Part shown: one piece after another, positions 3,215 to 45,239 of the stretch
Layout of the letters: each line of letters begins with the position of its first letter
Numbering within the stretch: the first letter of the stretch is position 1
Source of the DNA: a virus
Lineage: Duplodnaviria; Caudoviricetes
IMG/VR virus record: IMGVR_UViG_3300021962_000022
Direction: 5' to 3' (one strand)
Length of the DNA stretch: 64,000 nt
The notes under the pieces: model-generated
Databases searched by the model: none
What the model was told of the DNA's origin: nothing
Seen by the model: only the letters and a program-made list of their open reading frames with translations
Position numbers and translations under genes: made by a program

Positions 3215-3225
3215 ATCTTATATCA

Positions 3226-3576: not shown

Positions 3577-3580
3577 ATTT

Positions 3581-3588
3581 CATAAATA
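3581..3588 (-). promoter_or_regulatory. Putative late promoter variant TATTTATG
   Basis: A few nt upstream of the ATG at 3576 (position approximate to +/-1). Confidence 0.5.
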
Positions 3589-3618
3589 TAAAAAATCATA
3601 TTTTATAATAAAGTATTT

Positions 3619-4326: not shown

Positions 4327-4328
4327 TA

Positions 4329-6199: not shown

Positions 6200-9100
6200 T
6201 TAACAAACTTCTTCACAACCACAACCGTGTGCCCCACCACAACAAGTTACACCATAAGAGAAACCTGACGTACCACCTAAATTAGGTATTGTATACCATA
6301 CACCTCTGTCGAATACCGCTAAGTACATTACTCTACTTATACATCTACTTTCAGTTGTTGCTGTGGTGTATAATCGTTGAAAGAATTGACCATCACAACA
6401 TTGATAATACATATAAACTTGACCATAATCTGTAATGTCTCGGTCAGTAATATTAATCTCCGTACACTTACAATCACACGCACCTATGACCGATACTGAA
6501 CCAGTCCACGGAAATCCGCCGACGTTAGGTGCTCCACAAGCGCATAAAACTAATTCGTGATTTCCACCATTTGCCTCCCAATAAGCGGGGTCAGACAATG
6601 TTTGGGCATTACCCTGACAATCTGTGTAACTAACAAAGTTCCAATTGTTTAATTGAGTTACTAACCATTCACGACAATCACATGGTGGTGTTGATGAAGG
6701 TGTTGGGGTTGGAGTTGGTGATACACCCGCAGCAGCAGGGGAACTTGATGGTGTTACAGAAGGGGTAACAGATGGAGTTAAAGATGGTGTAACCGAAGGT
6801 GTTGGTGTTCTACTTGGTGTAACAGATGGAGTTAAAGATGGTGTAACACTAGCGGTTCTCGATGGTGTAACCGAACTTGTTGGTGTAACGCTCGGGGTTA
6901 CTGATGGTGTAACTGAAGGTGTAACTGATGGAGTTACGCTGGCAGTTCTTGAAGGGGTAACAGATGGTGTTGGTGGTGGGGATGCTCCCGCTGTTCTACT
7001 TGGTGTAACACTAGCGGTTCTTGATGGAGTTAAAGATGGTGTAACCGAAGGTGTTGGTGTAACACTTGGTGTTCTTGACGGTGTAACACTTGGTGTTATC
7101 GATGGTGTAACACTAGCGGTTCTCGATGGTGTAACGGATGGACAATTTTGAAACGTTTCAAGAATACATTCTTCACAACTACCATAACTTGATGTATATA
7201 TCGGGCCGGTATTTGGTCCAAAGTCATCAAATCTTGCACATAATTGGGCTGATTGTATATAAAACACCGTTCCAATTGCCGTACCAATTGGTACTCTACC
7301 TTGATAAATTGTTGTATCACCAGCACAACATGAAGTAAACACCGCACCTATGTACTGTGGACTTGGTGATGGTGTTACAGAAGACGTTGGTGTTAATGAA
7401 GGTGTAATAGATGGTGTTACTGAACTACTTGGTGTAACTGAAGGTGTAACGGAAGGTGTAACGCTCGATGTTGGTGTCACAGAAGGTGTAACGCTCCGTG
7501 TTGGGTCTGGTGTTCTTGATGGTGTAGGAGTAACAGAAGGTGTAACGCTCGATGTTGGTGTCACAGAAGGTGTAACGCTCCGTGTTGGGTCTGGTGTTAC
7601 TGAACTACTTGGTGTAACTGAAGGTGTTGTACTTGGTGTAATTGAAGGTGTTACAGAACTACTTGGAGTTACAGATGGTGTTCTTGAAGGGGTGATAGAT
7701 GGTGTAACAGATGATGTTGCGGTTACTGATGGTGTTGTACTTGGTGTAATTGAAGGTGTTACAGAACTACTTGGAGTTACTGATGGTGTTGTACTTGGTG
7801 TAATTGAAGGTGTTACAGAACTACTTGGAGTTACAGATGGTGTTGTACTTGGTGTGATAGACGCGGTAACACTTGATGTTGGTGTTAACGACGGAGTGAT
7901 AGAAGGTGTTACAGATGGAGTTCTTGAAGGGGTCAAAGAAGGTGTTCTTGACGGAGTTGCAGTTACTGAACTTGTTGGGGTTGGTGATGGTGTTGGACAG
8001 GTAAATACCGCGTTACAACTTGCACAATCAGCGAATTTTGAACTAGCCAATGTATAGAAAGGATATGCACCATTTGCAATTAAAACAAATGATTGATAAC
8101 ATGTCCCTCCAAATGGATAAATTCCAGGGTTACCAGTTATGTAGTTAAAATCACCCTGTGTCATGTTGATGTTGTAAATATTGTTATCACAACAACTCTG
8201 TGTTTGTACCGACACAATTACAGTTGATGGTGTTACTGTAGGTGTAACTGATGGAGTCACAGAACTACTTGGGGTTACCGAAGGTGTTACAGAAGGTGTA
8301 ACGCTCGATGTTGGTGTTACTGTAGGTGTAACTGATGGAGTCACAGAACTTGTAGGGGTTACGGATGATGTAACGGAAGGTGTAATGCTCGATGTTGGTG
8401 TCACAGAAGGTGTAACGCTCCGTGTTGGGTCTGGTGTTCTTGATGGTGTAGGAGTAACAGAAGGTGTAACGCTCGATGTTGGTGTCACAGAAGGTGTCAC
8501 TGATGGTGTTACACTTGGTGTGACAGAACTTGTTGGGGTAACTGATGAGGTAACCGACGGAGTCACTGAGCTTGTTACCGATGGTGTAACTGAAGGTGTT
8601 ACACTTGGAGTTACTGAAGAAGTAACAGATGGTGTAACGGAACTTGTTGGTGTTACTGATGGTGTTACTGAACTTGTAACCGAAGGTGTTACAGAACTAG
8701 TTGGGGTGACTGAAGGTGTTAGTGATGGGGTAACTGATGCGGTTCTACTTGGTGTAACTGATGGTGTAACAGATGATGTTGGTTCTGGTGTTCTTGATGG
8801 TGTAACAGATGATGTTGGAGTTACAGAAGGTGTTGTACTTGGTGTGATAGAAGGTGTTACGGATGATGTTGCTGTCACTGATGGAGTTACAGAAGGTGTC
8901 ACGGATGGTGTAACAGATGATGTTGGAGTTACAGAAGGTGTTGTACTTGGTGTGATAGAAGGTGTTACGGAACTTGATGGTGTAACGGAAGGTGTTAATG
9001 ATGGTGTAACTGACGGTGTAACACTTGAAGTTGCTGTCACTGATGGAGTTACAGAAGGTGTCACCGATGGAGTAACAGATGATGTTGGTGTTACGGATGG

Positions 9101-12100
9101 TGTTCTACTTGGTGTAATTGACGGAGTTACAGAACTACTTGGAGTTACAGAAGGAGTAACCGATGAAGTGATACTCGGAGTTACTGAAGACGATGGTGTT
9201 ATTGAAGGTGTTGTACTTGGTGTGATAGAAGGTGTTACGGAACTTGATGGTGTAACGGAAGGTGTTAATGATGGTGTAACTGACGGTGTAACACTTGAAG
9301 TTGGTGTAATTGACGGGGTTACCGATGGAGTTACCGATGGGGTAACACTTGATGTCGGTGTAACACTTGGTGTCCTACTTGGTGTAACTGATGGTGTCAC
9401 AGATGAAGTTGCAGTTACTGAAGGTGTTGTACTTGGTGTGATAGAAGCCGTCACAGATGGTGTTACAGAACTACTTGGAGTTACAGAAGGTGTTGTACTT
9501 GGTGTTATTGAAGAAGTTACCGACGGAGTTACAGAACTACTTGGGGTAACTGAAGGTGTTCTCGATGAAGTGACAGAAGGTGTTACAGAAGATGTTGGTG
9601 TAACAGAAGGTGTTACAGAAGGAGTCACGGATGGTGTAACCGAACTACTTGGAGTTACTGATGGTGTTGTACTTGGTGTAAGTGATGGGGTAACAGAACT
9701 TGTAGGAGTAACCGAACTAGTAACACTTGGTGTGAGAGATGGTGTAACCGAACTACTTGGTGTAACTGAAGGTGTTGTACTTGGTGTAAGTGATGGAGTA
9801 ACTGAGCTACTTGGGGTTACAGAAGGAGTAACACTTGGTGTAACTGAGCTCGTAACACTTGGAGTAACTGATGGTGTAACACTTGGTGTAACTGAGCTCG
9901 TAACACTTGGAGTAACTGATGGTGTAACGGAACTACTTGGTGTAACCGAAGGAGTAACAGAACTTGTTACAGAAGGAGTAACAGATGATGTTGCAGTTAC
10001 TGAAGGGGTTACTGAAGGTGTAACTGAAGGTGTTACCGAACTTGTTGCAGTTACCGAAGGGGTTCTTGACGGGGTGACACTCGGTGTAACACTAGAAGTA
10101 GGTGTAACAGATGGAGTAACGGATGGTGTTACTGAACTTGTTATGGATGGTGTTACCGAACTAGTAACTGAAGGAGTAACTGATGGAGTCACACTTGGAG
10201 TTACGGATGATGTTGGTGTTACAGATGATGTCACCGAAGGGGTTATACTCGGTGTAACCGAACTAGTAGGTGTAACGGATGGAGTTACTGATGGTGTAAG
10301 TGATGGTGTAACGGAACTAGTAGATGTTACAGAAGGGGTTACTGATGGTGTAAGTGATGGTGTAACGGAACTAGTAGATGTTACAGAGGGGGTTACTGAA
10401 CTTGTAACACTTGGAGTAACTGAAGACGTTGGTGTTACCGAAGGTGTTACCGAAGGTGTAACCGATGGGGTTACTGAAGAAGTTGGTGTTACTGACGGTG
10501 TTACCGAAGGAGTTACAGAACTTGTTACCGAAGGTGTAACGGAAGGTGTTAAAGATGGTGTTATACTTGGTGTTACTGAAGGTGTTACGGAACTACTTGG
10601 TGTAACACTTGGCGTTCTTGAAGGAGTAACACTTGGTGTAACTGAACTTGTTGGCGTAACTGAACTTGTAACTGACGGGGTTATTGAAGAAGTAACACTT
10701 GGAGTTACGGAACTAGTAACAGATGGAGTGACACTTGGTGTTATAGATGGTGTAACAGAACTTGTGGGTGTTACTGATGGTGTAAGTGATGGAGTAACAG
10801 AAGGTGTTACTGACGATGTCGCGGTTACGGATGGGGTAACAGATGGTGTAAGTGATGGTGTTACCGAACTTGTTGGAGTAACAGATGGTGTAACGGATGG
10901 TGTAACAGAACTAGTAACTGATGGAGTAACCGAACTTGTTACTGAAGGAGTTACACTTGGAGTAATCGATGGAGTTACTGAAGATGTTGGAGTTACAGAA
11001 GGTGTTGTACTTGGTGTAATTGATGGGGTTACAGATGACGTTGCGGTTACGGATGGGGTAACAGATGGTGTAAGTGATGGTGTTACACTTGATGTTACTG
11101 ATGGAGTAACACTTGGTGTTCTTGATGGTGTTATAGATGGTGTAACTGAACTTGTCGGTGTAACTGAACTTGTAACAGATGGTGTGACAGATGGTGTTAC
11201 CGAACTAGTTGCAGTAACCGAAGGAGTAACCGAAGGGGTAACCGACGGAGTAACGGAACTTGTTGGAGTTATAGATGGTGTAACGGAACTAGTAACCGAT
11301 GGAGTTACACTTGATGTTACCGATGGGGTTACACTTGGTGTTACAGAACTTGTTACCGATGGTGTTACTGAACTTGTAACCGAAGGTGTAACAGAACTTG
11401 TAACTGACGGAGTAACAGAAGGTGTTACTGAACTAGTAGGTGTCACTGATGGAGTCACACTTGGTGTTACACTTGGAGTAACAGACGAAGTTGGTGTCAC
11501 AGATGGAGTAACCGATGGTGTTACTGAACTAGTAACCGATGGTGTAACAGACGATGTCACTGATGGAGTCACACTTGGTGTTACACTTGGAGTAACAGAC
11601 GAAGTTGGTGTCACAGATGGAGTAACCGATGGGGTTATACTTGGTGTTACCGAACTTGTTGGAGTTATAGATGGTGTAACGGAACTAGTAACCGATGGAG
11701 TTACACTTGATGTTACCGATGGGGTTACACTTGGTGTTCTTGACGGTGTTATAGATGGTGTCACGCTCGAAGTTGGTGTAACAGATGGAGTTACAGAACT
11801 TGTTACCGAAGGTGTTACAGATGATGTTGGTGTTACTGATGGTGTTACGGAACTTGTAACCGATGGAGTTACAGACGAAGTAACGGATGGAGTCACTGAC
11901 GGAGTAACCGATGGTGTAACCGAACTTGTTGCGGTAACACTTGGTGTCACACTTGAAGTAACGGATGGAGTCACTGAACTTGTTGGTGTTACCGATGGTG
12001 TTACTGATGGAGTTACGCTTGATGTCACTGAAGGTGTTACCGATGGGGTAACTGAAGGTGTTCTTGATGGTGTAACTGATGGTGTTACCGAACTTGTTGG

Positions 12101-15100
12101 AGTAACTGATGAGGTAACTGATGGAGTCACTGAAGAAGTGACCGATGGGGTAATGGATGATGTTGGAGTAACAGATGGTGTAACTGATGGTGTTAGTGAT
12201 GGGGTTACTGAAGACGTTGGGGTTACAGATGGTGTAACACTCGGAGTTATGGAACTCGTTACTGACGGAGTCACTGAACTTGTTACCGACGGTGTTATTG
12301 ATGGTGTTGCCGATGGAGTAACAGAACTTGTCGGAGTTACTGAAGGAGTTACTGATGGTGTTACCGAACTTGTTACGGATGGAGTTACCGAACTTGTAAC
12401 AGACGGAGTAACTGACGATGTCACAGATGGCGTAACACTTGATGTTGGAGTTACTGATGGTGTTACCGAACTAGTAACAGATGGTGTAACTGAACTTGTA
12501 ACAGAAGGAGTAACTGAAGGTGTTCTTGACGGTGTTACAGATGGTGTAACTGATGATGTCGGGGTAACTGATGGAGTTACAGAACTAGTAACCGATGGAG
12601 TTACTGAAGATGTTGGAGTAACAGATGGTGTTACACTTGGTGTTACTGACGCGGTTACTGATGGAGTTACAGATGATGTAACTGATGGGGTAACCGAACT
12701 TGTTACCGAGGGTGTTACTGACGAAGTTGGTGTTACTGACGGAGTTACTGATGGTGTTATACTTGGAGTAACAGAACTTGTTGGGGTTACCGAAGCCGTA
12801 ACAGAAGGTGTTACTGAACTTGTTACCGAAGGTGTTACGGATGATGTTACAGATGGCGTTCTACTTGGTGTAATAGATGGTGTTACGGAACTAGTTGGGG
12901 TAACTGAAGGAGTTACGGATGGGGTAACAGAACTTGTCACCGAAGGTGTTACAGATGGTGTTACGGATGGAGTAACCGATGGTGTAACTGATGGTGTAAC
13001 AGACGAAGTTGGTGTCACAGAAGGTGTAACCGATGGAGTGACACTTGACGTTACTGACGGAGTCACTGAACTTGTTACCGACGGTGTTATTGATGGTGTA
13101 ATAGATGGTGTTACTGAACTAGTTGGGGTAACTGAAGGAGTCACGGATGGGGTTACAGAACTAGTGACAGATGGTGTTACTGAAGGGGTTACAGACGGAG
13201 TAACTGACGAGGTTACAGAAGGGGTTACACTTGATGTTGGAGTAACTGAAGCGGTAACTGACGGTGTTACGGATGGGGTAACAGAACTTGTTACCGAAGG
13301 TGTTACAGATGGTGTAACAGAAGGTGTTACAGAAGATGTTGGTGTAACAGATGGTGTTACTGAAGGTGTTACCGACGGTGTTACAGAACTAGTTGGTGTT
13401 ACTGATGGAGTTACTGAAGGTGTAACGGAACTAGTGACAGATGGTGTTACTGAAGGTGTTACTGATGCGGTTACCGATGGAGTAACTGAAGAAGTTGGTG
13501 TAATCGATGGTGTCACAGACGAAGTTACAGAAGGTGTAACAGAACTTGTTGGCGTTACACTCGGAGTTACTGATGGTGTTATCGAAGGTGTTACTGATGA
13601 TGTAACAGATGGAGTTATACTTGGTGTAACTGAACTTGTAACACTTGGAGTCACAGAACTTGTAGGGGTTACGGATGATGTAACGGAAGGTGTAACCGAT
13701 GGGGTAACTGATGATGTCACCGACGGAGTGATAGACGGAGTCACACTTGATGTCACCGATGGTGTAACTGAACTGGTGGGTGTTACTGACGGTGTAATCG
13801 ATGGTGTAACGGAAGGTGTTATAGAACTAGTTACTGAAGGTGTTACAGAAGGTGTTCTACTTGGTGTTACTGATGGAGTAACGGAACTTGTAGGAGTTAC
13901 CGACGAAGTAACAGAAGGAGTTACTGAACTTGTAACTGATGGAGTTACAGAAGGGGTTAAAGATGGTGTTACAGAACTAGTGACTGACGGTGTTACCGAT
14001 GAAGTTGGTGTTACCGAAGGTGTGACAGATGGAGTAACAGATGATGTCACGGATGGCGTAACGCTTGGGGTAACACTAGGTGTGACTGAAGGTGTTACGG
14101 ATGGGGTTACTGAACTTGTTGGTGTTACAGAAGGTGTGACAGATGGAGTAACAGATGGTGTAACCGATGATGTTACCGATGGAGTAACCGATGGAGTGAC
14201 AGAACTAGTGACTGATGGTGTTACACTCGAAGTAGGTGTTACCGATGGAGTAACTGATGGTGTAACTGAACTTGTAACGGAAGGTGTTACTGAAGGTGTA
14301 AGTGATGGGGTGACTGATGACGTAACTGAAGGAGTCACTGATGATGTTGGGGTAACAGATGATGTTACTGAAGGTGTTACAGAAGGAGTTATCGATGATG
14401 TAACCGATGGTGTTACCGAACTAGTAACAGAAGGGGTTACACTTGGTGTTACTGATGATGTCGGTGTAACACTTGGTGTTCTACTTGGGGTAACTGATGG
14501 AGTTACAGAACTTGTAGGTGTTACTGACGGTGTTAATGATGGCGTAACTGAACTTGTAACAGAAGGTGTAACAGATGGTGTTACCGAACTAGTAACTGAT
14601 GGAGTTACACTTGGAGTTACAGATGATGTGGGTGTTACAGAACTTGTAACCGATGGAGTTACAGAACTAGTGACTGACGGAGTAACCGATGGAGTAACGG
14701 ATGGTGTAACTGAACTCGTAACCGAAGGGGTCACTGAAGAAGTTGGGGTAACAGAGGGTGTTCTACTTGGGGTGATGGATGGGGTGATGGATGACGTAAC
14801 TGAGGGAGTGACACTCGGAGTAACCGATGAAGTCACTGAAGGTGTAACACTCGAAGTAGGTGTCACTGATGGTGTAACCGATGGTGTAACTGATGAAGTA
14901 GGTGTCACTGATGGTGTAACCGATGGTGTAACTGATGAAGTAGGTGTCACTGATGGTGTAACCGATGGTGTAACACTCGAAGTAGGTGTCACTGATGGTG
15001 TAACCGATGGTGTAACACTCGAAGTAGGTGTCACTGATGGTGTAACCGATGGTGTAACTGATGAAGTAGGTGTAACCGATGAAGTCACTGAAGGTGTAAC

Positions 15101-18100
15101 ACTCGAAGTAGGTGTCACTGATGGTGTCACTGATGGTGTAACCGATGGTGTAACTGATGAAGTAGGTGTAACCGATGAGGTAACTGACGGTGTAACAGAA
15201 CTAGTGACCGATGGAGTTACAGAACTTGTTACCGAAGGTGTAATCGAAGGAGTTACCGACGGTGTCACAGACGAAGTTGGTGTTACAGACGGAGTTACAC
15301 TTGGTGTTACAGACGGAGTTACAGACGAAGTTGGTGTTACAGACGGAGTTACACTTGGTGTTACAGACGGAGTTACACTCGATGTTACAGATGGAGTAAC
15401 AGATGGAGTGACAGAACTAGTAACTGATGGAGTCACACTCGATGTTGGGGTAACTGAAGGAGTCACGGATGGGGTAACAGAACTTGTTACCGAAGGTGTT
15501 ACTGACGAAGTTGGTGTTACGGATGGAGTTACCGAAGGGGTAACAGAACTTGTTACCGATGGTGTTACAGAACTAGTAACTGAAGGTGTTAATGATGGTG
15601 TTATTGATGGTGTAACTGATGGAGTGACGCTCGAAGTAGGGGTTACTGATGAGGTGACAGAAGGTGTTACCGAACTAGTAACTGATGGTGTAACTGATGG
15701 GGTTACTGAAGGTGTTACAGAACTAGTAACCGATGGTGTCACACTTGATGTTGGAGTTACTGATGGTGTTGTACTTGGTGTAAGTGATGGGGTTACCGAT
15801 GATGTAGGTGTTACTGAAGGTGTTACCGATGGAGTAACACTTGAAGTAACTGACGGTGTAACGGATGGTGTTACACTTGGGGTAACACTCGATGTTACAG
15901 ATGGGGTCACAGAACTAGTTGGTGTAACAGACGATGTAACCGACGGGGTTATAGAAGGTGTAACTGATGGGGTTACAGAACTAGTAACTGATGGGGTTAC
16001 AGAACTTGTTACACTTGGTGTTACTGATGAGGTTGGAGTCACCGACGGAGTAACCGAAGGAGTAATCGAAGGTGTTACTGAACTAGTTGGTGTGACAGAA
16101 GATGTAACTGATGGTGTAACAGAGGGTGTAACTGATGATGTTGGGGTTACTGATGAAGTTACCGATGGGGTAACAGAACTTGTTACTGAAGGAGTAACCG
16201 AAGAAGTTGGTGTTACGGATGGGGTGACCGAACTAGTGACAGAAGGTGTTACCGATGGAGTGACACTTGAAGTAACTGACGGTGTAACTGAACTACTTGG
16301 GGTAACACTTGGGGTTACTGATGAAGTTACCGATGGTGTAACACTCGATGTCGGAGTTACTGATGGAGTAACAGAACTTGTTACTGACGGAGTTACTGAT
16401 GGTGTAACAGAAGGAGTAACACTCGGAGTTACAGATGATGTAACAGATGGTGTTACTGAACTTGTAGGGGTTACTGAAGGTGTTAGTGAAGCGGTTACCG
16501 ATGGGGTAACTGAACTTGTTGGTGTTACCGATGCGGTAACGGAAGGTGTGATAGATGGAGTAACACTTGGTGTCACCGATGAGGTTACGGATGGGGTAAC
16601 TGATGGTGTTCTACTCGGTGTTACTGACGGTGTAACAGATGATGTTGGTGTTACGGATGGTGTTACACTTGGGGTTACAGATGGTGTTACCGAACTAGTT
16701 GCAGTAACCGAAGGAGTAACTGAAGGTGTTACCGAAGGTGTGACAGAACTTGTAGGAGTAACCGATGAGGTAACAGATGGGGTCACTGATGAAGTTACTG
16801 ATGGAGTAACGCTCGATGTTGGTGTTACTGAAGATGTTACACTTGGTGTTAAGGATGGTGTGACTGATGATGTTACTGAAGGAGTTACTGATGGTGTTAT
16901 ACTTGGGGTTACAGATGATGTAACGGAAGGTGTTACTGACGATGTTGGGGTTACGCTCGGAGTTACGGATGCGGTAATAGATGGTGTTACAGAACTAGTG
17001 ACAGATGGTGTAACACTTGGTGTAACCGATGAGGTAACAGATGGGGTAACTGAACTACTTGGTGTAACGCTTGGTGTCCTCGATGGGGTAATTGATGGTG
17101 TAACAGATGAAGTTGGTGTAACTGACGGAGTAATCGAACTTGTTACAGATGGAGTTATTGAACTTGTTACAGATGGAGTTACAGAACTTGTTACCGAAGG
17201 TGTTAATGATGGTGTTACGGAACTAGTTGGTGTTACTGATGGTGTAAGTGATGGTGTGACAGATGGTGTGATAGATGGTGTAACCGAATTAGTGACTGAT
17301 GGTGTAACGGATGGTGTTACGGAACTCGAAACTGAAGGTGTTAATGATGGTGTAACTGAAGGTGTTAATGACGCGGTTACGGACGGTGTTAAACTTGGTG
17401 TTACTGAAGGTGTTGGTGTACTTGTTGGCGTTGGTGATGGTAACATCGTATAATCAATGTCACATGAAGGTGCTGGTGTAGGGGTTACTGATGGTGTTAA
17501 AGACGGAGTAACCGATGGAGTTACAGAACTAGTTGGTGTAACGCTTGGTGTGACAGATGGAGTTACTGATGGGGTGACAGAACTAGTAATAGAAGGTGTT
17601 ACCGATGAGGTTACACTTGGTGTTACTGAACTTGTAGGTGTAATTGATGGTGTAACGGAACTAGTGACCGAAGGTGTAACCGATGGTGTAACGGAACTAG
17701 TTGGGGTGACTGACGGAGTTCTACTTGGTGTTAGTGATGGTGTAATAGAAGGAGTTACACTTGGAGTAACTGAACTTGTTGGAGTAACACTCGGGGTTAC
17801 AGATGATGTAACAGAAGGTGTTACTGAACTTGTGACAGAGGGTGTTACTGATGGGGTAACAGATGGTGTTACACTTGGTGTTACTGAACTTGTAGGGGTT
17901 ACTGATGGTGTTCTAGATGTCGTAACGGAAGGGGTTACGGAACTAGTTGGTGTTACGGAACTAGTAACAGATGGTGTAACCGACGGCGTTACTGAACTAG
18001 TAACTGACGGAGTAACACTTGGGGTTTCACTTGGAGTAACCGAAGGTGTTTCACTTGGTGTTATCGACGGTGTAACCGAACTAGTAGGTGTAACCGAAGG

Positions 18101-21100
18101 TGTTTCACTTGGAGTGATTGACGGTGTTACAGAACTAGTTAGAGTAATGGAAGGTGTTATACTTGGGGTTACCGATGATGTTACTGAGGGAGTTATAGAT
18201 GGGGTTATACTCGGTGTAACCGATGCGGTGACAGATGGTGTAACTGAACTCGTGGGTGTAACTGATGGAGTTACCGATGCGGTGACAGATGGTGTAACTG
18301 AACTAGTAACACTTGGAGTAACGGATGCTGTAACTGAAGGTGTTATACTTGGTGTAACAGAACTAGTTGGGGTTACAGATGGAGTTTCACTTGGTGTTAT
18401 CGACGGTGTTATACTTGGTGTAACAGACGCAGTAACTGATGGAGTTATACTTGGTGTAACAGACGCAGTAACAGATGGTGTTACCGAACTAGTGGGTGTA
18501 ACCGAAGGTGTTTCACTTGGAGTTATACTTGGTGTAACAGAACTAGTGACTGATGGTGTAACACTTGCGGTAACGGAAGGTGTCACTGATGGTGTAACCG
18601 ATGCGGTAACTGATGGTGTTATACTTGGTGTAACGGAACTAGTAACAGATGGTGTCACCGAAGGTGTAACAGATGATGTCGGTGTAACACTTGGTGTTTC
18701 ACTTGGAGTTATACTTGGTGTAACTGATGATGTCGGTGTAACACTTGGTGTTTCACTTGGAGTTATACTTGGTGTAACTGACGGAGTAACACTTGATGTT
18801 GGAGTTACAGATGGGGTTATACTTGGAGTTACCGATGCAGTAACCGACGGTGTAACCGAACTAGTTGGTGTAACAGATGGAGTTTCACTTGGTGTGATAC
18901 TTGGTGTAACGGAACTAGTAACAGATGGGGTTATACTTGGAGTTACCGATGCAGTAACCGACGGTGTTACTGAACTAGTTGGGGTTACAGATGGAGTTTC
19001 ACTTGGTGTTATCGACGGTGTTACGGAACTGGTTGGTGTAACTGAACTAGTAACACTAGGTGTTATACTTGGTGTAACTGAACTAGTAGGTGTAACACTT
19101 GGTGTAACGCTTGGTGTTACGGATGAAGTAACCGAAGGTGTAACTGAACTAGTCGGTGTAACACTTGGTGTTTCACTAGGTGTAACCGATGCGGTAACAG
19201 ATGGTGTTACTGAACTAGTAGGTGTAACACTTGGTGTTTCACTTGGTGTGATTGATGGTGTTATACTTGGTGTAACGGATGATGTTGGGGTTACAGATGG
19301 AGTTTCACTTGGAGTTATACTTGGAGTAACCGACGGTGTAACTGAACTAGTTGGTGTAACAGATGGAGTTTCACTTGGTGTGATACTTGGAGTTATACTT
19401 GGAGTAACTGATGATGTTGGTGTGATAGATGGTGTAACTGAACTAGTAACTGATGGAGTTACAGAACTTGTTGGGGTTATAGACGGAGTTTCACTAGGAG
19501 TGATTGACGGTGTTATACTTGGTGTAACTGATGAAGTAACAGATGGGGTTACTGATGGTGTTACTGAACTAGTGACACTTGGAGTAACTGAACTAGAGGG
19601 TGTAACCGAAGGTGTTGCACTTGGTGTTATACTTGGTGTAACTGATGATGTTGGTGTGACTGATGGAGTTACAGAACTAGTAACTGACGGAGTAACACTT
19701 GATGTTGGTGTAACACTTGGTGTTTCACTTGGAGTGATTGATGGTGTTATACTTGGTGTAACGGAACTAGTAACACTAGGTGTTATACTTGGTGTAACTG
19801 AACTAGTAACAGATGGTGTTACCGATGGTGTTTCACTTGGTGTTATACTTGGTGTAGCAGATGGTGTTACTGAACTAGTAGGTGTAACACTTGGTGTTTC
19901 ACTTGGTGTAACGGAACTAGTAACAGATGGTGTTATTGAAGGAGTTACAGAACTAGTGACTGATGGAGTTACTGAACTTGTCACACTTGGTGTAAGTGAT
20001 GGGGTAACAGAACTTGTTGGAGTTACGGAAGGTGTGATTGATGGTGTAACTGAAGGTGTTCTTGAGGGTGTTAAACTTGGTGTTACAGATGAACTTACAG
20101 ATGGAGTAACCGAACTTGTAACCGAAGGGGTTACGGAACTAGTTGGTGTTACGGAACTAGTAACAGATGGTGTTATTGAAGGAGTTACGGAAGGTGTTAA
20201 TGATGGTGTTACAGATGATGTTACAGAAGGGGTTACCGAAGGTGTTACAGAAGGTGTAACTGATGACGTTGGTGTTACGGAACTAGTAATCGATGGGGTT
20301 ACACTTGAAGTAACAGATGGTGTAACTGAACTAGTAACTGAAGGTGTTAATGATGGTGTTCTTGATGGTGTAACAGAAGGAGTTACGGATGAGGTTGGTG
20401 TAACCGATGAGGTAACCGATGGTGTAACCGAACTAGTAACTGAAGGGGTTACCGAGCTCGTTACTGATGGAGTAACACTTGAAGTTACAGAAGGAGTTAC
20501 GGAAGGTGTTATACTCGAGGTTGGGGTTACTGACGGTGTCAATGATGGTGTAACGGAACTAGTGACCGAAGGTGTAACCGATGGTGTAACTGATGGAGTG
20601 ACACTTGGTGTAATCGATGGGGTAACAGATGATGTTGGGGTGACTGACGGTGTTATACTTGGTGTAATTGATGGGGTTACCGATGATGTAGGTGTTACTG
20701 AAGGTGTTACCGATGGAGTGACACTTGAAGTAACTGACGGTGTAACGGATGGTGTTACACTTGGAGTCAATGAACTTGTAACTGATGGTGTTACAGATGA
20801 TGTCGGAGTTACTGATGGAGTAACAGAGGGTGTAACAGAACTAGTAACTGATGGTGTTACTGATGGTGTTAGTGATGGTGTAACTGAACTTGTAACAGAA
20901 GGTGTTACCGATGGTGTAACTGAACTAGTGACCGAAGGTGTAACCGATGGAGTTACAGACGAAGTTGGGGTTACACTTGGTGTGATTGACGGGGTAACCG
21001 AAGGGGTTACAGAACTAGTAACACTTGGAGTTACGGAACTGGTAACAGATGGTGTTACCGATGGAGTTACAGATGATGTTGGTGTTACTGAAGGGGTTAC

Positions 21101-22195
21101 TGAACTTGTTATCGATGGTGTTAATGATGGGGTTACTGAACTTGTTGGTGTTACAGAGCTTGTAACTGACGGTGTAACACTTGAAGTAATTGATGGTGTA
21201 ACACTCGGAGTTACGGAACTTGTTGGAGTTACAGATGGTGTGACTGATGGTGTGATAGATGGTGTAACCGAACTAGTAGGTGTAACTGATGGAGTTACTG
21301 AAGCGGTTATAGATGGAGTCACTGAACTCGTAACAGATGGTGTAACGGAACTTGTTGGGGTTATAGATGGTGTTAAAGACGGAGTAACCGATGGTGTAAC
21401 TGATGGAGTTACTGAACTTGTTGGTGTAACAGAACTAGTAACAGATGGTGTTACTGAAGAAGTTGGTGTAACAGATGTGGTAACCGATGGTGTTACTGAA
21501 GGTGTAACCGACGAAGTTGGTGTTACAGACGGAGTCTCACTTGGAGTTAACGACGGTGTTAAACTTGGTGTTACTGAAGAAGTTGGTGTAACAGATGTGG
21601 TAACCGATGGTGTGATAGAAGGAGTAACTGATGGTGTAACACTTGGAGTAACTGAACTTGTTGGTGTTACACTTGGAGTCTCTGAAGGTGTAATAGATGG
21701 AGTTACAGAGCTAGTGGGTGTGATTGATGGTGTAATCGAGCTAGTTGGAGTTACAGAAGGTGTAACTGATGGTGTAACATCTGGTGTTCTTGTTGGTGTA
21801 ACCGATGGGGTTGGGGTAATTGAACTCGTTGGAGTAACTGATGGAGTCACTGATGGAGTTGAAGTTACTGATGGGGTTGTTGTGACAGTTGGTGTTACTG
21901 AAGGTGTGGTTGTGACAGTTGGTGTAACAGGAGGTGTACTTTGTGGTGTTGGCGTTAAACTTGGTGTAACAGAAGGTGTAATTGAAGGTGTTGGGGATGG
22001 ACAATTAATTGCCGCGTAACATGTTTTGTCATGCGATGGAAAATAAACTGAATAGGTTCCTAAGTAATAAGTTGTGTCGTAATAATACGGCATCACAACA
22101 GTACCTAAATTAATGGTACCGCCAGTACAGGGATAAAATGTGATAACACCAATTTCACCATCAAAATTACCTGTGTTTATCTTTATTAATGCCAT
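6200..22195 (-). CDS. 5331-aa giant mucin-like (TPSV/TSSV repeat) protein with N-terminal domain and C-terminal Cys-rich modules
   Basis: Uninterrupted 16-kb ORF with plausible non-repetitive N- and C-termini, a dedicated upstream promoter, and synonymous variation concentrated at wobble positions of this frame. Confidence 0.85.
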   Translation of the reverse strand: MALIKINTGNFDGEIGVITFYPCTGGTINLGTVVMPYYYDTTYYLGTYSVYFPSHDKTCYAAINCPSPTPSITPSVTPSLTPTPQSTPPVTPTVTTTPSVTPTVTTTPSVTSTPSVTPSVTPTSSITPTPSVTPTRTPDVTPSVTPSVTPTSSITPSITPTSSVTPSITPSETPSVTPTSSVTPSVTPSVTPSITPSVTTSVTPTSSVTPSLTPSLTPSETPSVTPTSSVTPSVTPSVTTSVTPTSSVTPSVTSSVTPTSSVTPSVTPSVTPSLTPSITPTSSVTPSVTSSVTPSITASVTPSVTPTSSVTPSITPSVTPSVTPTSSVTPSVTPSITSSVTPSVTSSVTPTSSVTPSLTPSITSSVTPSVTPTSSVTPSVTPSVTSSVTPSVTSSVTPSVTPSITPSVTPTSSVTPSVTPSVTSSVTPSVTPSVTSSVTPSLTPSVTPSVTSSVTPSVTPSVTPTSSVTPSVTSSLTPSVTPSVTPSVTSSVTPSVTPSVTPTSSVTPSITPSITPSVTPTSSVTPSITPSVTPSVTPSVTPSVTSSVTPSLTPSVTPTSSITPSVTPSVTSSVTPSVTSSVTPSVTSSVTPSVTSSVTPTSSVTPSVTPSRTPSLTPSVTSSVTPSVTSSVTPSITSSVTPTSSVTPSVTPSVTPSVTSSVTPSLTPSVTPSITPSVTSSVTPTSSVTPSVTSSVTPSVSSSVTPSLTPSRTPSVTPSITPSVTPTSSVTPSLTPSVTSSVTPSVTSSVTPSITPSVTSSVTPSETPSVTPTSSVTPSATPSITPSETPSVTPSVTSSVTPSITPSVTSSVTPSITPSITPSETPSVTPTSSVTPSVTSSVTPSVTPTSSVTPSITPSATPSVTPSSSVTPSVTSSVTPSVTPSVTSSVTPSITPSITPSETPSITPTSSVTPSVTSSVTPSITPTSSVTPSITPSITPSETPSVTPTSSVTPSVTPSITPSETPSVTPTSSVTPSITPSITPSETPSVTPTSSVTPSVTASVTPSETPSVTPTSSVTPSVTSSVTPSVTPSVTPTSSVTPSITPSVTSSVTPTSSVTPSITPSETPSVTPTSSVTPSVTASVTPSITPSVTSSVTPSITPSETPSVTPTSSVTPSVTASVTPSITPSVTPTSSVTPSVTPSITPSETPSVTPTSSVTPSITPSETPSVTPTSSVTPSVTPSVTSSVTPSITPSVTASVTPSVTPSVTASVTPSVTSSVTPSITPSETPSVTPTSSVTPSVTASVTPSITPSVTASVTPSITPSITPSETPSVTPTSSVTPSITPSVTASVTPSVTSSVTPSVTASVTPSVTPTSSVTPSVTASVTPSITPSITPSVTSSVTPSITPSITLTSSVTPSITPSETPSVTPTSSVTPSITPSETPSVTPSETPSVTPSVTSSVTPSVTPSVTSSVTPTSSVTPSVTTSRTPSVTPTSSVTPSVTPSVTPSVTPSVTSSVTPSVTSSVTPSVTPTSSVTPSVTPSITPSLTPSRTPSVTPTSSVTPSVTPSVTSSVTPSITPTSSVTPSVTSSVTPSITSSVTPSVTPSVTPSVTPTSSVTPSVTPSLTPSVTPTPAPSCDIDYTMLPSPTPTSTPTPSVTPSLTPSVTASLTPSVTPSLTPSVSSSVTPSVTPSVTNSVTPSITPSVTPSLTPSVTPTSSVTPSLTPSVTSSVTPSVTSSITPSVTSSITPSVTPTSSVTPSITPSRTPSVTPSSSVTPSVTSSVTPSVTPSVTSSVTPSITASVTPSVTPTSSVTPSVTSSVTPSITPSVTPSVTSSVTPSLTPSVTSSVTPTSSVTPSVTSSVTPSVTSSVTPTSSVTPSVTPSVTPSVTATSSVTPSVTPSVTPSVTPTSSVTPSVTPSRTPSVTPSVTSSVTPSVTPSITPSVTASVTPTSSVTPSVTASLTPSVTPTSSVTPSVTSSVTPSVTPSVTPSVTPSVTSSVTPSVTPTSSVTPSVTSSVTPSVTPSSSVTPSVTSSVTPSVTPSVTSSVTPSVTPTSSVTPSVTSSVTPSVTSSVTPTSSVTPSVTPSVTSSVTPTSSVTPSITPSVTPSVTPTSSVTPSVTSSVTPSVTSSVTPSVTPSITPSVTSSVTPTSSVTPSVTSSVTPSVTPSVTPSVTSSVTPSVTPSVTPTSSVTPSLTPSTTPSVTPTSSVTPSVTSSVTPSVTPSVTPSVTSSVTPSVTSSVTPTSSVTPSVTPSITPSLTPSVTSSVTPSVTSSVTPSVTPSVTPTSSVTPSVTSSVTPSVTPSVTPTSSVTPSVTSSVTPSVTPSVTSSVTPSVTPSVTPSVTPTSSVTPSVTPSVTPSVTPTSSVTPSVTPSITPSVTSSVTPSVTSSVTPSVTSSVTPTSSVTPSVTPSVTPSVTPTSSVTPSVTSSVTPTSSVTPSVTPSVTPTSSVTPSVTPSVTPTSSVTPSVTPSVTPTSSVTPSVTPSVTPTSSVTPSVTPSVTPTSSVTPSVTSSVTPSVTPSVTSSITPSITPSRTPSVTPTSSVTPSVTSSVTPSVTPSVTPSVTSSVTPSVTSSVTPTSSVTPSVTPSVTSSVTPSVTPSVTSSVTPSLTPSVTPTSSVTPSVTPSRTPSVTPTSSVTPSVTPSVTSSVTPSVTSSITPSVTPSVTSSVTPTSSVTPSVTSSVTPSLTPSVTPSVTSSVTPSVTPSVTPTSSVTPSVTSSVTPSVTPSVTSSVTPSVTPSVTPSVTPTSSVTPSVTPSVTPSVTPSVTPSVTSSVTPSVTPSVTPTSSVTPSVTSSVTPSLTPSVTPSVTSSVTPSVTSSVTPTSSVTPSVTPSRTPSVTPSVTSSITPSVTPSITPSVTPTSSVTPSVTSSVTPSITPSVTSSVTPSVTPSVTSSVTPTSSVTPSVTSSVTPSITPSVTSSVTPSITPSVTPSVTPTSSVTPSVTSSVTPSITPTSSVTPSVTASVTPSVTPSVTSSVTPSVTPSVTPTSSVTPSVTPSVTPSVTPTSSVTPSVTPSVTPSVTSSVTPSVTPSVTASVTPTSSVTPSVTSSVTPSVTPSVTPSVTSSVTPSVTPSVTPTSSVTPSITPSITPSVTSSVTPSVTSSVTPSVTPSVTPTSSVTPSVTPSVTPSVTPSVTPSVTSSVTPSVTPSVTPTSSVTPSITPSRTPSVTSSVTPSVTSSVTPSVTASVTPTSSVTPSITPSVTPSVTPTSSVTPSVTSSVTPSVTSSVTPSVTASVTPSVTPSVTPTSSVTPSVTSSVTPSVTPTSSVTPSVTPSRTPSVTPSVTSSVTPSVTSSVTPSVTPTSSVTPSVTSSVTPSVTSSVTPSVTSSVTPSVTPSVTPTSSVTPSATPSITPSVTSSVTPSVTSSITPSVTPSVTPTSSVTPSLTPSVTPSVTPTSSITPSVTSSVTPSVTSSVTPTSSVTPSVTPSRTPSVTPSVTPSVTSSVTPSVTPSVTPTSSVTPSVTSSVTPSVTATSSVTPSVTPSVTPSVTSSVTPSVTSSVTPSVTPTSSVTPSVTSSVTPSVTPTSSVTPSITPSRTPSVTPSVTSSVTPSVTSSVTPSITPTSSVTPSITPSVTPSVTPTSSVTPSVTPSVTPSVTSSVTPSVTSSVTPSVTPSVTPTSSVTPSVTPSVTPSVTPTSSVTPSVTPSVTSSVTPSVTSSVTPSVTSSVTPSVTPSVTSSVTPSVTSSVTPSITPTSSVTPSVTPSVTPSVTATSSVTPSVTPSVTSSVTPTSSVTPSITPSRTPSVTPSVTSSVTPSLTPSVTPSVTATSSVTPSITPSTTPSVTPTSSVTPSITPSVTPSVTSSVTPSVTSSVTPSVTPSVTPTSSVTPSLTPSVTPSVTATSSVTPSVTPSLTPSVTPTSSVTPSITPSVTPSVTSSVTPSVTSSITPSVTSSVTPTSSVTPSVTPSRTPSVTPSSSVTPSVTPSITPSLTPSVTPSVTSSVTPSVTPSVTPTSSVTPSVTPSVTPSVTPTSSVTPSVTSSVTPSVTSTSSVTPSLTPSVTPSVTSTSSVTPSLTPSVTPSVTPTSSVTPSITPSVTSSVTPTSSVTPSVTPSVTPSVTSSVTPSITSSVTPSVTPSVTPTSSVTPSVTPSRTPSVTATSSVTPSVTPSVTPSVTATSSVTPSVTSSVTPSVTPSSSVTPSVTPSVTSSVTPSVTPSVTPSVTSSVTPSVTPSVTPSSSVTPSLTPSTTPSVTPSSSVTPSLTPSVTSSVTPTSSVTPSLTPSTTPSVTPSSSVTPSVTPSVTPSVTPTSSVTPSVTSSRTPSVTPSSSVTPSVTSSITPSTTPSVTPSSSVTPSVTASITPSTTPSVTATSSVTPSVTPSRTPSVTPTSSVTPSVTPSVTPSITPTSSVTPSVTPSLTPSVTPSSSVTPSITPSTTPSITPSSSVTPSITSSVTPSVTPSSSVTPSITPSRTPSVTPTSSVTPSVTPSVTPSVTATSSVTPSVTPSLTPSVTPSSSVTPSITPSTTPSVTPTSSVTPSVTPSVTPSVTATSSVTPSITPSTTPSVTPTSSVTPSRTPEPTSSVTPSVTPSRTASVTPSLTPSVTPTSSVTPSVTSSVTPSVTPTSSVTPSVTSSVTPSVTPSVTPSVTSSVTPSVTSSVTPTSSVTPSVTPSVTPSVTPTSSVTPSVTPTPSRTPDPTRSVTPSVTPTSSITPSVTSSVTPTSSVTPSVTPTVTPTSSVTPSVTPSVTPSSSVTPSVTPTVTPSTVIVSVQTQSCCDNNIYNINMTQGDFNYITGNPGIYPFGGTCYQSFVLIANGAYPFYTLASSKFADCASCNAVFTCPTPSPTPTSSVTATPSRTPSLTPSRTPSVTPSITPSLTPTSSVTASITPSTTPSVTPSSSVTPSITPSTTPSVTPSSSVTPSITPSTTPSVTATSSVTPSITPSRTPSVTPSSSVTPSITPSTTPSVTPSSSVTPDPTRSVTPSVTPTSSVTPSVTPTPSRTPDPTRSVTPSVTPTSSVTPSVTPSVTPSSSVTPSITPSLTPTSSVTPSPSPQYIGAVFTSCCAGDTTIYQGRVPIGTAIGTVFYIQSAQLCARFDDFGPNTGPIYTSSYGSCEECILETFQNCPSVTPSRTASVTPSITPSVTPSRTPSVTPTPSVTPSLTPSRTASVTPSRTAGASPPPTPSVTPSRTASVTPSVTPSVTPSVTPSVTPTSSVTPSRTASVTPSLTPSVTPSRTPTPSVTPSLTPSVTPSVTPSSSPAAAGVSPTPTPTPSSTPPCDCREWLVTQLNNWNFVSYTDCQGNAQTLSDPAYWEANGGNHELVLCACGAPNVGGFPWTGSVSVIGACDCKCTEINITDRDITDYGQVYMYYQCCDGQFFQRLYTTATTESRCISRVMYLAVFDRGVWYTIPNLGGTSGFSYGVTCCGGAHGCGCEEVC
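8220..22000. repeat. About 13.8-kb low-complexity coding repeat (3-5 aa units: TPSV, TSSV, TPSI, TPSE, TPSR, TPST)
   Basis: Direct reading; repetitive at protein level, degenerate at DNA level. Confidence 0.95.
14853..15062. repeat. Five near-identical 42-bp tandem copies ([14 protein letters not shown])
   Basis: gaagtaggtgtcactgatggtgtaaccgatggtgtaac(tgat/actc) at 14853, 14895, 14937, 14979 and 15021. Confidence 0.9.
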
Positions 22196-22235: not shown

Positions 22236-22264
22236 AATATACTCAATTTTTAGGGGTTTGTCAA
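22236..22264 (-). promoter_or_regulatory. Sigma70-like promoter TTGACA-N17-TATATT upstream of the giant repeat gene
   Basis: -35 at 22264-22259, exact 17-nt spacer, -10 at 22241-22236, 40 nt before the ATG. Confidence 0.7.
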
Positions 22265-37250: not shown

Positions 37251-37251
37251 G

Positions 37252-37704: not shown

Positions 37705-37734
37705 ACTAATAAATATAACTAAAGAAGAAATACT

Positions 37735-37742
37735 TATAAATA
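37735..37742 (-). promoter_or_regulatory. Putative late promoter motif TATTTATA (second copy TATTTATT at 37708-37715)
   Basis: Directly after the nrdA terminator, ahead of the baseplate operon. Confidence 0.6.
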
Positions 37743-40291: not shown

Positions 40292-40297
40292 AATATT

Positions 40298-45232: not shown

Positions 45233-45239
45233 GTATTGA

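Follow-up and report, generated by a model that had tools for sequence, protein, structure and literature searches.

The viral DNA stretch analysed here (64 kb, hereafter the window) carries a giant gene, and our favoured reading of its product, at roughly even odds, is a virion-associated, O-glycosylated flexible tether of a freshwater jumbo myophage that bears binding modules at its distal end. We infer virion attachment, glycosylation and ligand binding from the genes described below. A tether of this kind is probably a phage appendage without earlier description; our literature searches found no previous account of a phage protein that is giant and Thr/Ser/Pro-rich, or mucin-like.

The gene lies on the minus strand (6200..22195, 16 kb) and encodes 5,331 residues plus the stop codon. 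In agreement with the preliminary description, it is one unbroken frame as assembled, with no internal stop codon and no N bases. Ser (1524), Thr (1368), Pro (963) and Val (921) make up 89.6% of the protein. Two long open reading frames on the plus strand (8181-17453 and 17457-22019) are mirror images of the repeat and not genes. Inflation of the array during assembly had been named as the outcome that would overturn the case. Simple inflation is not borne out: exact DNA repeats within the ORF reach 111 bp at most, 125 different 12-mers spell the 690 SVTP units, and third-position codon use is that of the adjoining genes. Judged from sequence, the gene is real and under selection, as it is open over 16 kb, shows synonymous diversity and host-like codon use, and has conserved orthologues. 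The earlier claim that the protein lacks a transmembrane segment and a signal peptide also stands. Kyte-Doolittle hydropathy peaks at 1.17 over all 19-mers, and on inspection the N-terminus looks unlike a signal and has no hydrophobic leader.

About 86% of the protein is a (Ser/Thr-X)n tract (8207..22000, minus strand; residues 66-4663, 4,598 aa), which connects the N-terminal domain to two Cys-rich modules, A and B, and a C-terminal block. The tract is a strict dipeptide repeat in a single register throughout, with Ser or Thr at 99.5% of 2,299 alternate positions and perfect uninterrupted runs at residues 141-1574 and 1587-4470. It contains 2,642 Ser and Thr residues, and the X positions hold Pro (862), Val (854), Ser (340) and Ile (107). 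Tryptic cleavage sites are missing from the tract. The reported array of about 4,600 Thr, Pro, Ser and Val residues was thus recovered as almost only Ser, Thr, Pro, Val and Ile, except for one island of about 17 residues, TPAPSCDIDYTMLPSPTP (17426..17479, minus strand; residues 1573-1590). This island recurs in six relatives (L018, L020, L023, L043, L061 and L093), where its distance from the N-terminus varies. In four diverged phages Ser or Thr occupies 99.3–100% of the alternate positions. The X composition is Pro/Val/Ser/Ile in the window and in L011, and Pro/Asn/Val/Leu/Lys in L089. Since the Ser/Thr register is kept across relatives while X changes, the hydroxyls, about 2,300 regularly spaced conserved positions along the tract, are the constrained feature.

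We propose that the tract is an extended, non-globular spacer. Ordinary fibres have a trimeric beta shaft, which a chain of Pro, Val, Ser and Thr is unable to form; the structure previously called a filament is therefore better described as a flexible tether. The 1.1–1.4 µm given for it is a contour length only: a worm-like chain of this contour, with a persistence length of 1.5–15 nm, has a root-mean-square end-to-end distance of about 60–215 nm. The comparison of this length with a tail measured by a 648-residue ‘tape measure’ is also dropped, since that ORF (58657-60603) matched neither PHROG nor Pfam and its assignment was a guess.

The 65-residue N-terminal domain (22001..22195, minus strand; residues 1-65) and the four Cys-rich C-terminal modules previously noted were both recovered. 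Module A (7997..8206, minus strand; residues 4664-4733) has the pattern CC..C..CxxC..C. Module B (7142..7357, minus strand; residues 4947-5018) has the same Cys spacing, with orthologues in three relatives (L011, L018 and L089). The C-terminal domain (6203..6688, minus strand; residues 5170-5331) consists of two Cys-rich beta-sandwich subdomains. Structure prediction of the terminal domains, suggested earlier as a check, gave confident AF2 models, a six-stranded beta-sandwich for the N-terminal domain (pLDDT 88.7) and the double sandwich for the C-terminal domain (pLDDT 87, pTM 0.80), and no convincing fold match. Pfam revealed no family at E ≤ 0.1 in the N-terminal domain or in any of the three C-terminal blocks, and Foldseek with both models against the PDB gave nothing at E ≤ 0.001 (best E 0.1 or worse). 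The best Z in a wide VIA-align search was only 3.9 (C2-like and lectin sandwiches, for the C-terminal domain), and a search of the ESM Atlas returned viral hypothetical proteins only, with scores up to 0.85. A profile search with the C-terminal domain in 1.84 billion representative proteins found only 48 matches; several are composition artefacts, and the clear relatives also bear the domain C-terminally. No match was obtained by tblastn of residues 4655-5331 against 50,697 GenBank phage records, and exact peptide words from the C-terminal domain picked out no relative among viral contigs. The N-terminal domain is a proposed virion-docking adaptor and the C-terminal domain a proposed distal binding tip; as fold relatives are not recognizable, binding by the terminal modules is suggested by analogy only.

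Relatives of the giant gene were reached by searching with the gene upstream of it (22289..26530, minus strand; 1,413 aa), which in the relatives always directly precedes the gene carrying the N-terminal domain and whose protein is highly conserved over its N-terminal 900 residues or so. Many related phages from metagenomes have kept the giant gene. A 5,472-residue orthologue is identical base for base in three separate metagenome assemblies, other complete orthologues have 2,737 and 2,940 residues, and a further one, ending at a contig edge, has at least 4,673. A comparison of lengths, also suggested previously, showed that the slot after the 1,413-residue gene holds proteins from 224 up to 5,472 residues: one of 224 residues with no tract, two of about 325 residues with tracts of 30–45 residues, and versions of 2.7, 2.9, 5.3 or 5.5 thousand residues. 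The N-terminal domain is common to every version, short or giant. Its identity is 69–91% among the giant-gene relatives and 40–51% in the more distant proteins of 214, 325 and 329 residues; proteins of 224, 325 and 329 residues that begin with it occupy the same slot. Towards the closest clade, identity is 91% in the N-terminal domain and 39% in the C-terminal domain, with 89% in the flanking upstream gene. The Cys-rich modules are shuffled, gained and lost among relatives, and C-terminal modules are kept at the end of every complete version. At the level of sequence, the contrast of 91% and 39% is the pattern of a receptor-binding cassette. The earlier proposal of an N-terminal anchor with C-terminal tips is supported by this contrast, by the module shuffling and by the shared slot, all consistent with a conserved adaptor and variable tips. 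We propose that the giant gene represents an ordinary receptor-binding cassette that has been expanded to an extreme.

The genome harbouring the giant gene is that of a sheath/tube myophage, and genes for gp25-like and gp6-like baseplate proteins lie upstream on the same strand (35418-37806). The preliminary description placed the giant gene directly after the baseplate operon. It is indeed co-oriented with and downstream of these two genes, but six ORFs without a PHROG or Pfam family match intervene. Sequence searches of the PDB with the neighbouring proteins of 1,413 and 1,377 residues gave no matches, and a complex prediction for the N-terminal domain with residues 800-1413 of the upstream protein scored 0.00, which is uninformative either way. 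Downstream of the giant gene, three genes (926..6155, minus strand; 608, 235 and 762 aa) encode small Cys-containing modules on (Ser/Thr-X)n linkers of 20–106 residues; such tracts occur in the window in these genes and the giant gene only. A sigma-70-like promoter candidate (22236..22264, minus strand; TTGACA-17 nt-TATATT) is located about 40 nt upstream of the ATG. Its hexamers are preserved in close relatives with a varying spacer. The call is weak, since in this AT-rich DNA such sites are no more frequent than chance predicts. The T4 late-promoter motif TATAAATA was not enriched and is absent upstream of the giant gene on the coding strand.

The idea that the tract carries glycans has gained circumstantial support from related phages, which encode two large glycan-synthesis clusters and two GT60-like polypeptide GlcNAc-transferases. 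These enzymes are known from relatives alone, whose copies of the neighbouring gene are 89%, 88% and 51% identical, the window being a sequence of 64 kb. The search for glycosyltransferases advised in the preliminary description was run on the related genomes. Genome G001 (288 kb, 92% complete) has two genes of family PF11397 (E 3e-72 and 7e-48; DxH motif), which we take to be CAZy family GT60. It further encodes four GT2 enzymes, a GT-D-like protein, a UDP-GlcNAc 2-epimerase, an epimerase/dehydratase, nucleotidyltransferases and several methyltransferases. PF11397 was also found in G002, G006 and G007, and in none of 14 control bacterial genomes. To our knowledge, polypeptide GlcNAc-transferases of GT60 type are otherwise known from protists. 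Those of Dictyostelium and Trypanosoma cruzi are polypeptide alpha-GlcNAc-transferases (PMC8724618, PMC3769586). GT60 enzymes initiate mucin-type O-glycosylation on Thr-rich acceptors, and a soluble cytosolic form exists (PMC8724618, PMC3769586, PMC7185993); the known acceptors are Thr runs (PMC3769586). With its 2,642 Ser and Thr residues, the tract has the Thr/Ser-rich character of such substrates. A PDB sequence search with the GT60-like protein gave no match. Glycosylation of hydroxyproline is not favoured, since a search of G001 for the prolyl-4-hydroxylase-type family PF13640 gave no hit.

GT60-like enzymes are rare among GenBank phages (four of 50,697). The pattern (Thr-X)8, scanned in three of these four, occurs 122, 64 and 3 times, and not once in five large myophages without the enzyme; the association of enzyme and tract represents two phage lineages, not eleven independent cases. 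In one of the bearers, the Xanthomonas jumbo phage XacN1, (Thr-X)n tracts are carried by large ORFs that adjoin the tail sheath genes, and at least two glycoproteins in its virions take the Schiff stain (PMC5852040). The ‘moraphage’ paper (PMC12619734) reports core glycosyltransferases in freshwater jumbo phages. The GT60-like genes are not specific to the giant gene and may have other targets, since G007 has them and its slot tracts are short.

Several known systems resemble the giant protein in part. PT-box linkers, which in bacterial glycoside hydrolases (e.g. CenA and Cex of Cellulomonas fimi) connect the catalytic module to the carbohydrate-binding one, comprise 20–100 residues and are O-glycosylated in their native hosts. 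Like the tract, they are alternating Thr/Ser and Pro, extended and non-globular, and connect small folded modules. The giant protein does have an alternating hydroxy-amino-acid and Pro-rich segment (99.5% Ser/Thr) between folded modules, and the three downstream genes are exactly in this style. However, the tract has 4,598 residues, its X is often Val, Ser or Asn, and it is phage-encoded and accompanied by no catalytic domain. Animal gel-forming mucins have VWD/C8/TIL and C-terminal cystine-knot domains, a signal peptide and a densely O-glycosylated PTS domain. They share with the giant protein a very long Pro/Thr/Ser domain between Cys-rich domains, but their tandem repeats are longer, in contrast to the strict dipeptide register. 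The animal-mucin architecture assumed earlier did not hold up: VWD, C8, TIL and cystine-knot domains were not detected in the terminal domains (Pfam, E ≤ 0.1), nor was a secretion signal. The giant protein is a mucin analogue, not a member of the mucin family. Protist mucin-type O-GlcNAc glycoproteins have Thr-rich tracts in common with it, and the GT60 family (PF11397, DxH) occurs in related phages; the protist proteins are eukaryotic secretory or GPI-anchored.

The likeness to phage tail fibres and receptor-binding proteins concerns the conserved N-terminus, the divergent, shuffled C-terminus and the position near baseplate genes. The giant gene has the conserved proximal and variable distal ends and is an exchangeable cassette at a fixed locus on the baseplate side. 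Homology to a fibre family was not found (Pfam on the terminal domains, tblastn of residues 4655-5331, PHROGs on neighbouring genes), and the low-complexity shaft is unfit for the usual trimeric beta or coiled-coil rod. XacN1 offers a parallel in a GT60-like protein, ORF334, of 48% identity, together with many (Thr-X)n tracts and Schiff-positive virion bands (PMC5852040). Its tracts, however, measure tens of residues as opposed to thousands. No homologue of the N- or C-terminal domains turned up in GenBank phages. Virion O-glycosylation by phage-encoded glycosyltransferases is known in mycobacteriophages (Freeman et al., 2023, as cited in PMC12619734); there, other enzyme families act on short extensions at the C-termini of capsid and tail-tube subunits.

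In the mechanism that we propose, the conserved N-terminal beta-sandwich would dock the protein at the tail or baseplate periphery, with the 4,598-residue tract serving as an extended spacer. Its roughly 2,300 hydroxyls would be O-glycosylated in the cytoplasm of the infected cell by the soluble GT60-like GlcNAc-transferases of the phage, and the glycans might then be elaborated by its glycan clusters, judging by the relatives. Distally, the four variable modules, which are Cys-rich beta-sandwiches, may bind a ligand on a host or particle surface. The outcome would be a hydrated bottle-brush leash with a typical reach of about 0.1–0.2 µm and a maximal one of about 1.1–1.5 µm, which would enlarge the encounter radius and permit a reversible first contact in dilute water. 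Many Cys residues of the protein would be reduced in the cytoplasm, which counts against this reading. That a new class of appendage is at hand, a single-chain mucin-like leash glycosylated by GT60 enzymes in the bacterial cytoplasm and presenting exchangeable modules up to 1 µm away, is a more tentative suggestion, which we consider somewhat doubtful.

The protein might instead sit on the virion as a glycan brush or shield, the glycosylated tract being the working part and the C-terminal modules minor or structural; protease resistance, less unproductive sticking, or adhesion to exopolymer or algal mucilage would be its roles. The share of the tract in the protein, its conserved hydroxyl positions and the large glycan and methyl-sugar gene sets of the relatives agree with a brush, as does a precedent cited in PMC12619734, in which the virion glycans of mycobacteriophages act as a shield. 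Yet the C-terminal modules persist in all complete versions and diversify like specificity determinants, and a tract-less protein of 224 residues also serves the slot, so the tract seems an add-on to a binding cassette and not its core function. We regard the brush as unlikely. Less probable still is a protein that is no part of the virion but is produced during infection and either set free at lysis or active within the cell, as a decoy for released progeny, a progeny-holding matrix or a sink for host sugar nucleotides. Incorporation into the virion is indeed an inference, and the gene has a promoter candidate of its own, conserved in close relatives, so that its regulation may be separate from that of the baseplate genes. 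By hydropathy, however, the product has neither a signal peptide nor a transmembrane segment. Moreover, the gene lies within and co-oriented with the tail/baseplate block, and a cassette of conserved N- and variable C-terminus, shared with the short slot proteins, is what virion fibres typically show.

Finally, mis-assembly of repeats could account for the length of the array or for the open frame, or the gene could be decaying. Many related contigs terminate at or just inside the array, including some that are 100% identical in the upstream gene, and the length in the window is that of the assembly. In one relative, G002, a 253-nt difference breaks the frame of the giant gene, so such arrays can be mis-assembled or truly variable. 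An artefact is nevertheless highly improbable in view of the short longest repeat (111 bp), a 16-kb frame that continues into conserved C-terminal domains, an orthologue of similar size that is identical in three assemblies, and complete versions of 2.7–5.5 thousand residues in several lineages.

As a natural polymer design, a strict (Ser/Thr-X)n repeat kept up for thousands of residues is striking, and the lineage provides a natural series of tether lengths (0, 30, 2,000 and 4,600 residues). The pairing of enzyme and (Thr-X)n tract in cultured Xanthomonas and Stenotrophomonas jumbo phages would make the proposed leash directly testable. If it is correct, the frequent assembly breaks at the giant-gene locus of a widespread freshwater phage lineage would be explained, and a function would be at hand for the rare GT60-like genes that XacN1 and other jumbo phages carry. 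If the tract is glycosylated and borne by the virion, bacteriophages build mucin-like glycoproteins with their own enzymes; a modification system regarded as eukaryotic would then run in the bacterial cytoplasm, and phages would have evolved mucin-type protein glycosylation independently. Host finding would in this case depend on a long flexible leash and on polymer physics, not on a rigid trimeric fibre, and the adsorption kinetics of large aquatic phages would need to be modelled differently.

The giant gene (6200-22195, minus strand) is one ORF of 5,331 codons without stops or ambiguous bases, and Ser, Thr, Pro and Val account for 4,776 of its 5,331 residues. Only five places have non-repetitive sequence: the N-terminal residues (aa 1-65), an island of 17-18 aa within the tract (aa 1573-1590, window 17426-17479), two Cys-rich modules of about 70 residues with a common Cys spacing of CC..C..CxxC..C (aa 4664-4733 and 4947-5018), and a Cys-rich C-terminal block of 162 residues (aa 5170-5331). 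Hydropathy analysis of the whole protein revealed no segment hydrophobic enough for a membrane span, and no signal-like N-terminus was found by sequence inspection. This agrees with the preliminary description of a single 16-kb ORF with a Cys-rich C-terminal end and with neither signal peptide nor transmembrane segment. The G+C content of the ORF (0.42-0.46 versus about 0.32 upstream) is raised because of the codons for these four amino acids. Its third-position codon preferences are those of the neighbouring genes; it is therefore not foreign. Two ORFs on the plus strand, 8181-17453 (3,090 aa) and 17457-22019 (1,520 aa), were rejected as mirror by-products of the stop-free repeat and should not be annotated as genes. 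A candidate promoter of near-consensus sigma-70 type (22236-22264, minus strand; TTGACA-17-TATATT) lies just upstream of the giant gene. Its hexamers are kept in the related metagenomic records L089 and L011, with a different spacer. Were it functional, it would point to a host with classical sigma-70 rather than one with Bacteroidota-type promoters.

The tract is more regular than the term 'PTS-rich' conveys. Between aa 66 and 4663, Ser or Thr occupies 2,287 of the 2,299 positions of one alternating phase (99.5%), and the register never slips. Perfect (Ser/Thr-X) runs extend over aa 141-1574 and 1587-4470, and prolines are spaced by 4, 6, 8 or 10 residues with only three exceptions. The X positions hold Pro (862), Val (854), Ser (340) and Ile (107). 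Alternation is equally strict in L089 (5,472-aa protein; 99.3%; X being Pro, Asn, Val, Leu or Lys), L011 (100%; Pro, Val, Ser or Ile) and L018 (99.4%; Pro, Val, Ile or Thr). At the DNA level, the giant genes of the window and L089 show detectable similarity in their first 177 nt only. X thus changes over time and the hydroxyl positions stay the same; what selection acts on is the regularly spaced Ser/Thr. At least six other records preserve the island embedded in the tract (TPAPSCDIDYT(M/R/K)(L/I)PSPTP), about 300 to 1,580 residues from the N-terminus depending on the record. The window's version, TPAPSCDIDYTMLPSPTP, is kept nearly letter for letter in six of them and might serve for cleavage, docking or cross-linking.

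Structure prediction for the terminal domains, proposed in the preliminary description, gave two confident AlphaFold models, made with alignments of relatives. The N-domain is modelled as a six-stranded beta-sandwich (pLDDT 88.7) and the C-terminal block as two beta-sandwich subdomains (pLDDT 87, pTM 0.80). Neither model had a convincing structural relative (Foldseek E 0.1 or worse); the best match, with Z 3.9, was to C2-like and lectin sandwiches. Out of 1.84 billion representatives, a profile search with the C-terminal block retrieved only 48 proteins, most of them contig-end fragments and several of them composition artefacts; the clear relatives carry the domain at their own C-terminus. 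The block belongs to a small, lineage-restricted family.

The slot directly after the upstream 1,413-aa gene (22289-26530, minus strand) is a cassette site. One syntenic contig has a 224-aa protein there, with the same N-domain and without the tract. Relatives of about 51% identity have two tandem genes (325 and 329 aa), each composed of N-domain, a tract of about 30 aa, Cys module, a tract of about 45 aa and C-terminal domain. The giant gene thus follows this plan with a first linker about 150-fold longer. Divergence increases along the cassette: the N-domains of the window and L089 are 91% identical, their C-terminal domains 39%, and identity is 89% for the upstream gene but 57% for the downstream one. 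L018 and L089 also have extra modules missing from the window's giant gene. Three genes 3' of it (608, 235 and 762 aa) are built likewise, with modules resembling the giant protein's C-terminal subdomains, and within the window these three and the giant gene are the only ones with (Ser/Thr-X) tracts. In the 404-nt AT-rich gap between the 762-aa and 235-aa genes (3215-3618), neither strand has an ORF that reaches 150 aa.

An array of this size might be an assembly artefact. The longest exact repeat within the ORF is 111 bp, Tandem Repeats Finder detected only imperfect arrays (60-97% matches), and the 690 SVTP units are written by 125 different 12-mers, all of which speaks against it. The strongest argument against array inflation comes from the length comparison with related phages, also proposed earlier. 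The 1,413-aa gene has 215 relatives in IMG/VR, and a long Ser/Thr/Pro-rich ORF follows it in every relative with more than about 65% identity and enough downstream sequence. Complete versions are 2,737 aa (L018), 2,940 aa (L011) and 5,472 aa (the 89%-identity clade), and another of at least 4,673 aa reaches a contig end. The 16,419 nt of the 5,472-aa ORF are identical across records from three different samples. On the other side, many related contigs end at the array, some of them 100% identical to the window in the 1,413-aa gene. Furthermore, L092 (G002:C1:53766-70220) matches the 5,472-aa version except for a deletion of about 253 nt near nt 12,740-12,993, which breaks the giant frame into frames of 4,267 and 1,144 aa; either the assembly collapsed here or the length or frame varies naturally. 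The gene is therefore real; its exact length in the window is that of the assembly and is provisional.

The window belongs to a myophage, with tail sheath, tube and hub genes at 60748-63935 and gp25-like and gp6-like baseplate wedge genes at 35418-37806. Between them lies a replication and nucleotide block (37859-46097, minus strand) encoding SSB, a UvsX-like recombinase, an exonuclease, a DnaB-like helicase and both subunits, large and small, of a class I RNR. RNR genes likewise adjoin the tail module in XacN1, a cultured Xanthomonas jumbo phage. Two large minus-strand ORFs between the tube/hub genes and the replication module, 47447-53470 (2,007 aa) and 53787-58628 (1,613 aa), showed no PHROG or Pfam match and no (Ser/Thr-X) tract. 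The six ORFs between the gp6-like gene and the giant gene had no PHROG or Pfam family match either. The sheath protein is only 36-42% identical to those of the nearest cultured phages. The relatives reach 288 kb (92% estimated completeness), and the lineage is therefore one of jumbo phages.

Glycosyltransferases were searched for in the related genome G001. The search suggested in the preliminary description thus yielded two operon-like glycan clusters, in a relative rather than in the window's own genome. Of the nine GT2-type candidates in G001, six exceed the Pfam cut-off. One cluster (about 153.7-165.8 kb) encodes an epimerase/dehydratase, a UDP-GlcNAc 2-epimerase, two FkbM methyltransferases, four GT2-type proteins and a weak GT-D-like domain match below the Pfam cut-off. 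The first two genes of the other (about 265.4-281.7 kb) encode PF11397 'GlcNAc' glycosyltransferases (E 3e-72 and 7e-48); after them come a HAD/nucleotidyltransferase fusion, a second nucleotidyltransferase, TylF-type O-methyltransferases and a fusion of methyltransferase, HtrL and GT2 parts (790 aa). Between the nucleotidyltransferase and the methyltransferases of this glycan/methyl-sugar cluster sits a gene for a 409-aa RuBisCO large-chain-like protein (L105:8968-10197, G001 about 272.97-274.2 kb; PF00016, E 1.1e-31), which is unusual within a phage sugar pathway.

PF11397 presumably corresponds to CAZy family GT60. In Dictyostelium and T. cruzi, GT60 enzymes act as polypeptide alpha-GlcNAc-transferases and initiate the mucin-type O-glycosylation of Thr-rich proteins; the family includes a soluble cytosolic enzyme (PMC8724618, PMC3769586). 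GT60 enzymes share a DxH motif and the polypeptide Ser/Thr glycosylation mode with the animal mucin-initiating GT27 (PMC7185993). Both G001 proteins contain LDSHHRF and lack a leader, and therefore could act in the cytoplasm. PF11397 also occurs in G002, G006 (whose giant gene is the 2,940-aa one) and G007 (whose slot genes are the short ones), and in none of 14 control bacterial genomes. Bracketed by these relatives, the window's phage very probably has such a gene as well.

Among 50,697 GenBank phage records, tblastn detected the GT60-like protein in only four, each of them a jumbo myophage: Xanthomonas XacN1 and Xoo-sp13, and Stenotrophomonas CM1 and RAS14. Tracts were scanned for by a DNA pattern for Thr at eight alternate codons, with the reversed pattern as control. 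Carriers of the GT60-like gene gave 122 (XacN1), 64 (Xoo-sp13), 3 (CM1), 2,062 (G001), 45 (G007) and 16 (G006) matches, against 0, 0, 0, 3, 0 and 1 in the control. Phages without it (Mel-JY01, Flavobacterium immuto, Ochrobactrum OC, Bacillus SP-15 and LR756508) gave none (control 0-2). The XacN1 (Thr-X)n tracts (AP018399.1, 235607-261711 and 272200-280671) are in ORF350, ORF369, ORF370 and ORF372, large hypothetical proteins encoded next to the tail sheath and completion genes, and in the 2,823-aa ORF384. Purified XacN1 virions are reported to have at least two Schiff-positive glycoprotein bands. The authors, who saw no classical tail fibres, ascribe these bands to two glycosyltransferases of the phage (PMC5852040). 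One of these two enzymes, ORF334, is the homologue of the GT60-like protein; its gene adjoins a carbamoyltransferase gene. Since just two lineages are involved, the association of enzyme and tract is suggestive, not statistical. The cultured phages offer a system in which to test it.

We propose that the giant protein would be a virion-anchored, O-glycosylated leash of three parts: the N-domain as adaptor, a (Ser/Thr-X)n spacer decorated by GT60-like enzymes and extended by other transferases, and variable C-terminal modules as ligand binders. Rival readings, besides the assembly artefact considered above, are that the tract itself would be the functional part, as a glycan brush, or that the protein is a non-virion product. 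The comparison with mucins holds for a long tract with Cys-rich modules and fails for membership of the mucin family, whose defining flanking domains and secretion signal were tested for and are absent. The protein also falls outside all catalogued fibre families. Its gene behaves like a receptor-binding cassette, and the architecture of the protein is that of an extreme PT-box linker protein. We found no prior description of such a giant phage protein in the literature. There is a substantial, though less than even, chance that the protein is a genuinely new kind of viral appendage, coupled to mucin-type glycosylation encoded by the phage.

Persistence lengths were set at 1.5 nm for a bare and 10-15 nm for a mucin-like glycosylated chain. 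Treated as a worm-like chain, the tract has a contour length of 1.15-1.56 um and an rms end-to-end distance of about 60-70 nm when bare and about 150-215 nm when glycosylated. The micrometre length claimed previously therefore describes the maximum rather than the typical reach. Even so, a particle of about 0.2 um that carried the proposed leash would have its encounter radius multiplied, and in dilute lake water, where encounters limit adsorption, this is plausibly of importance.
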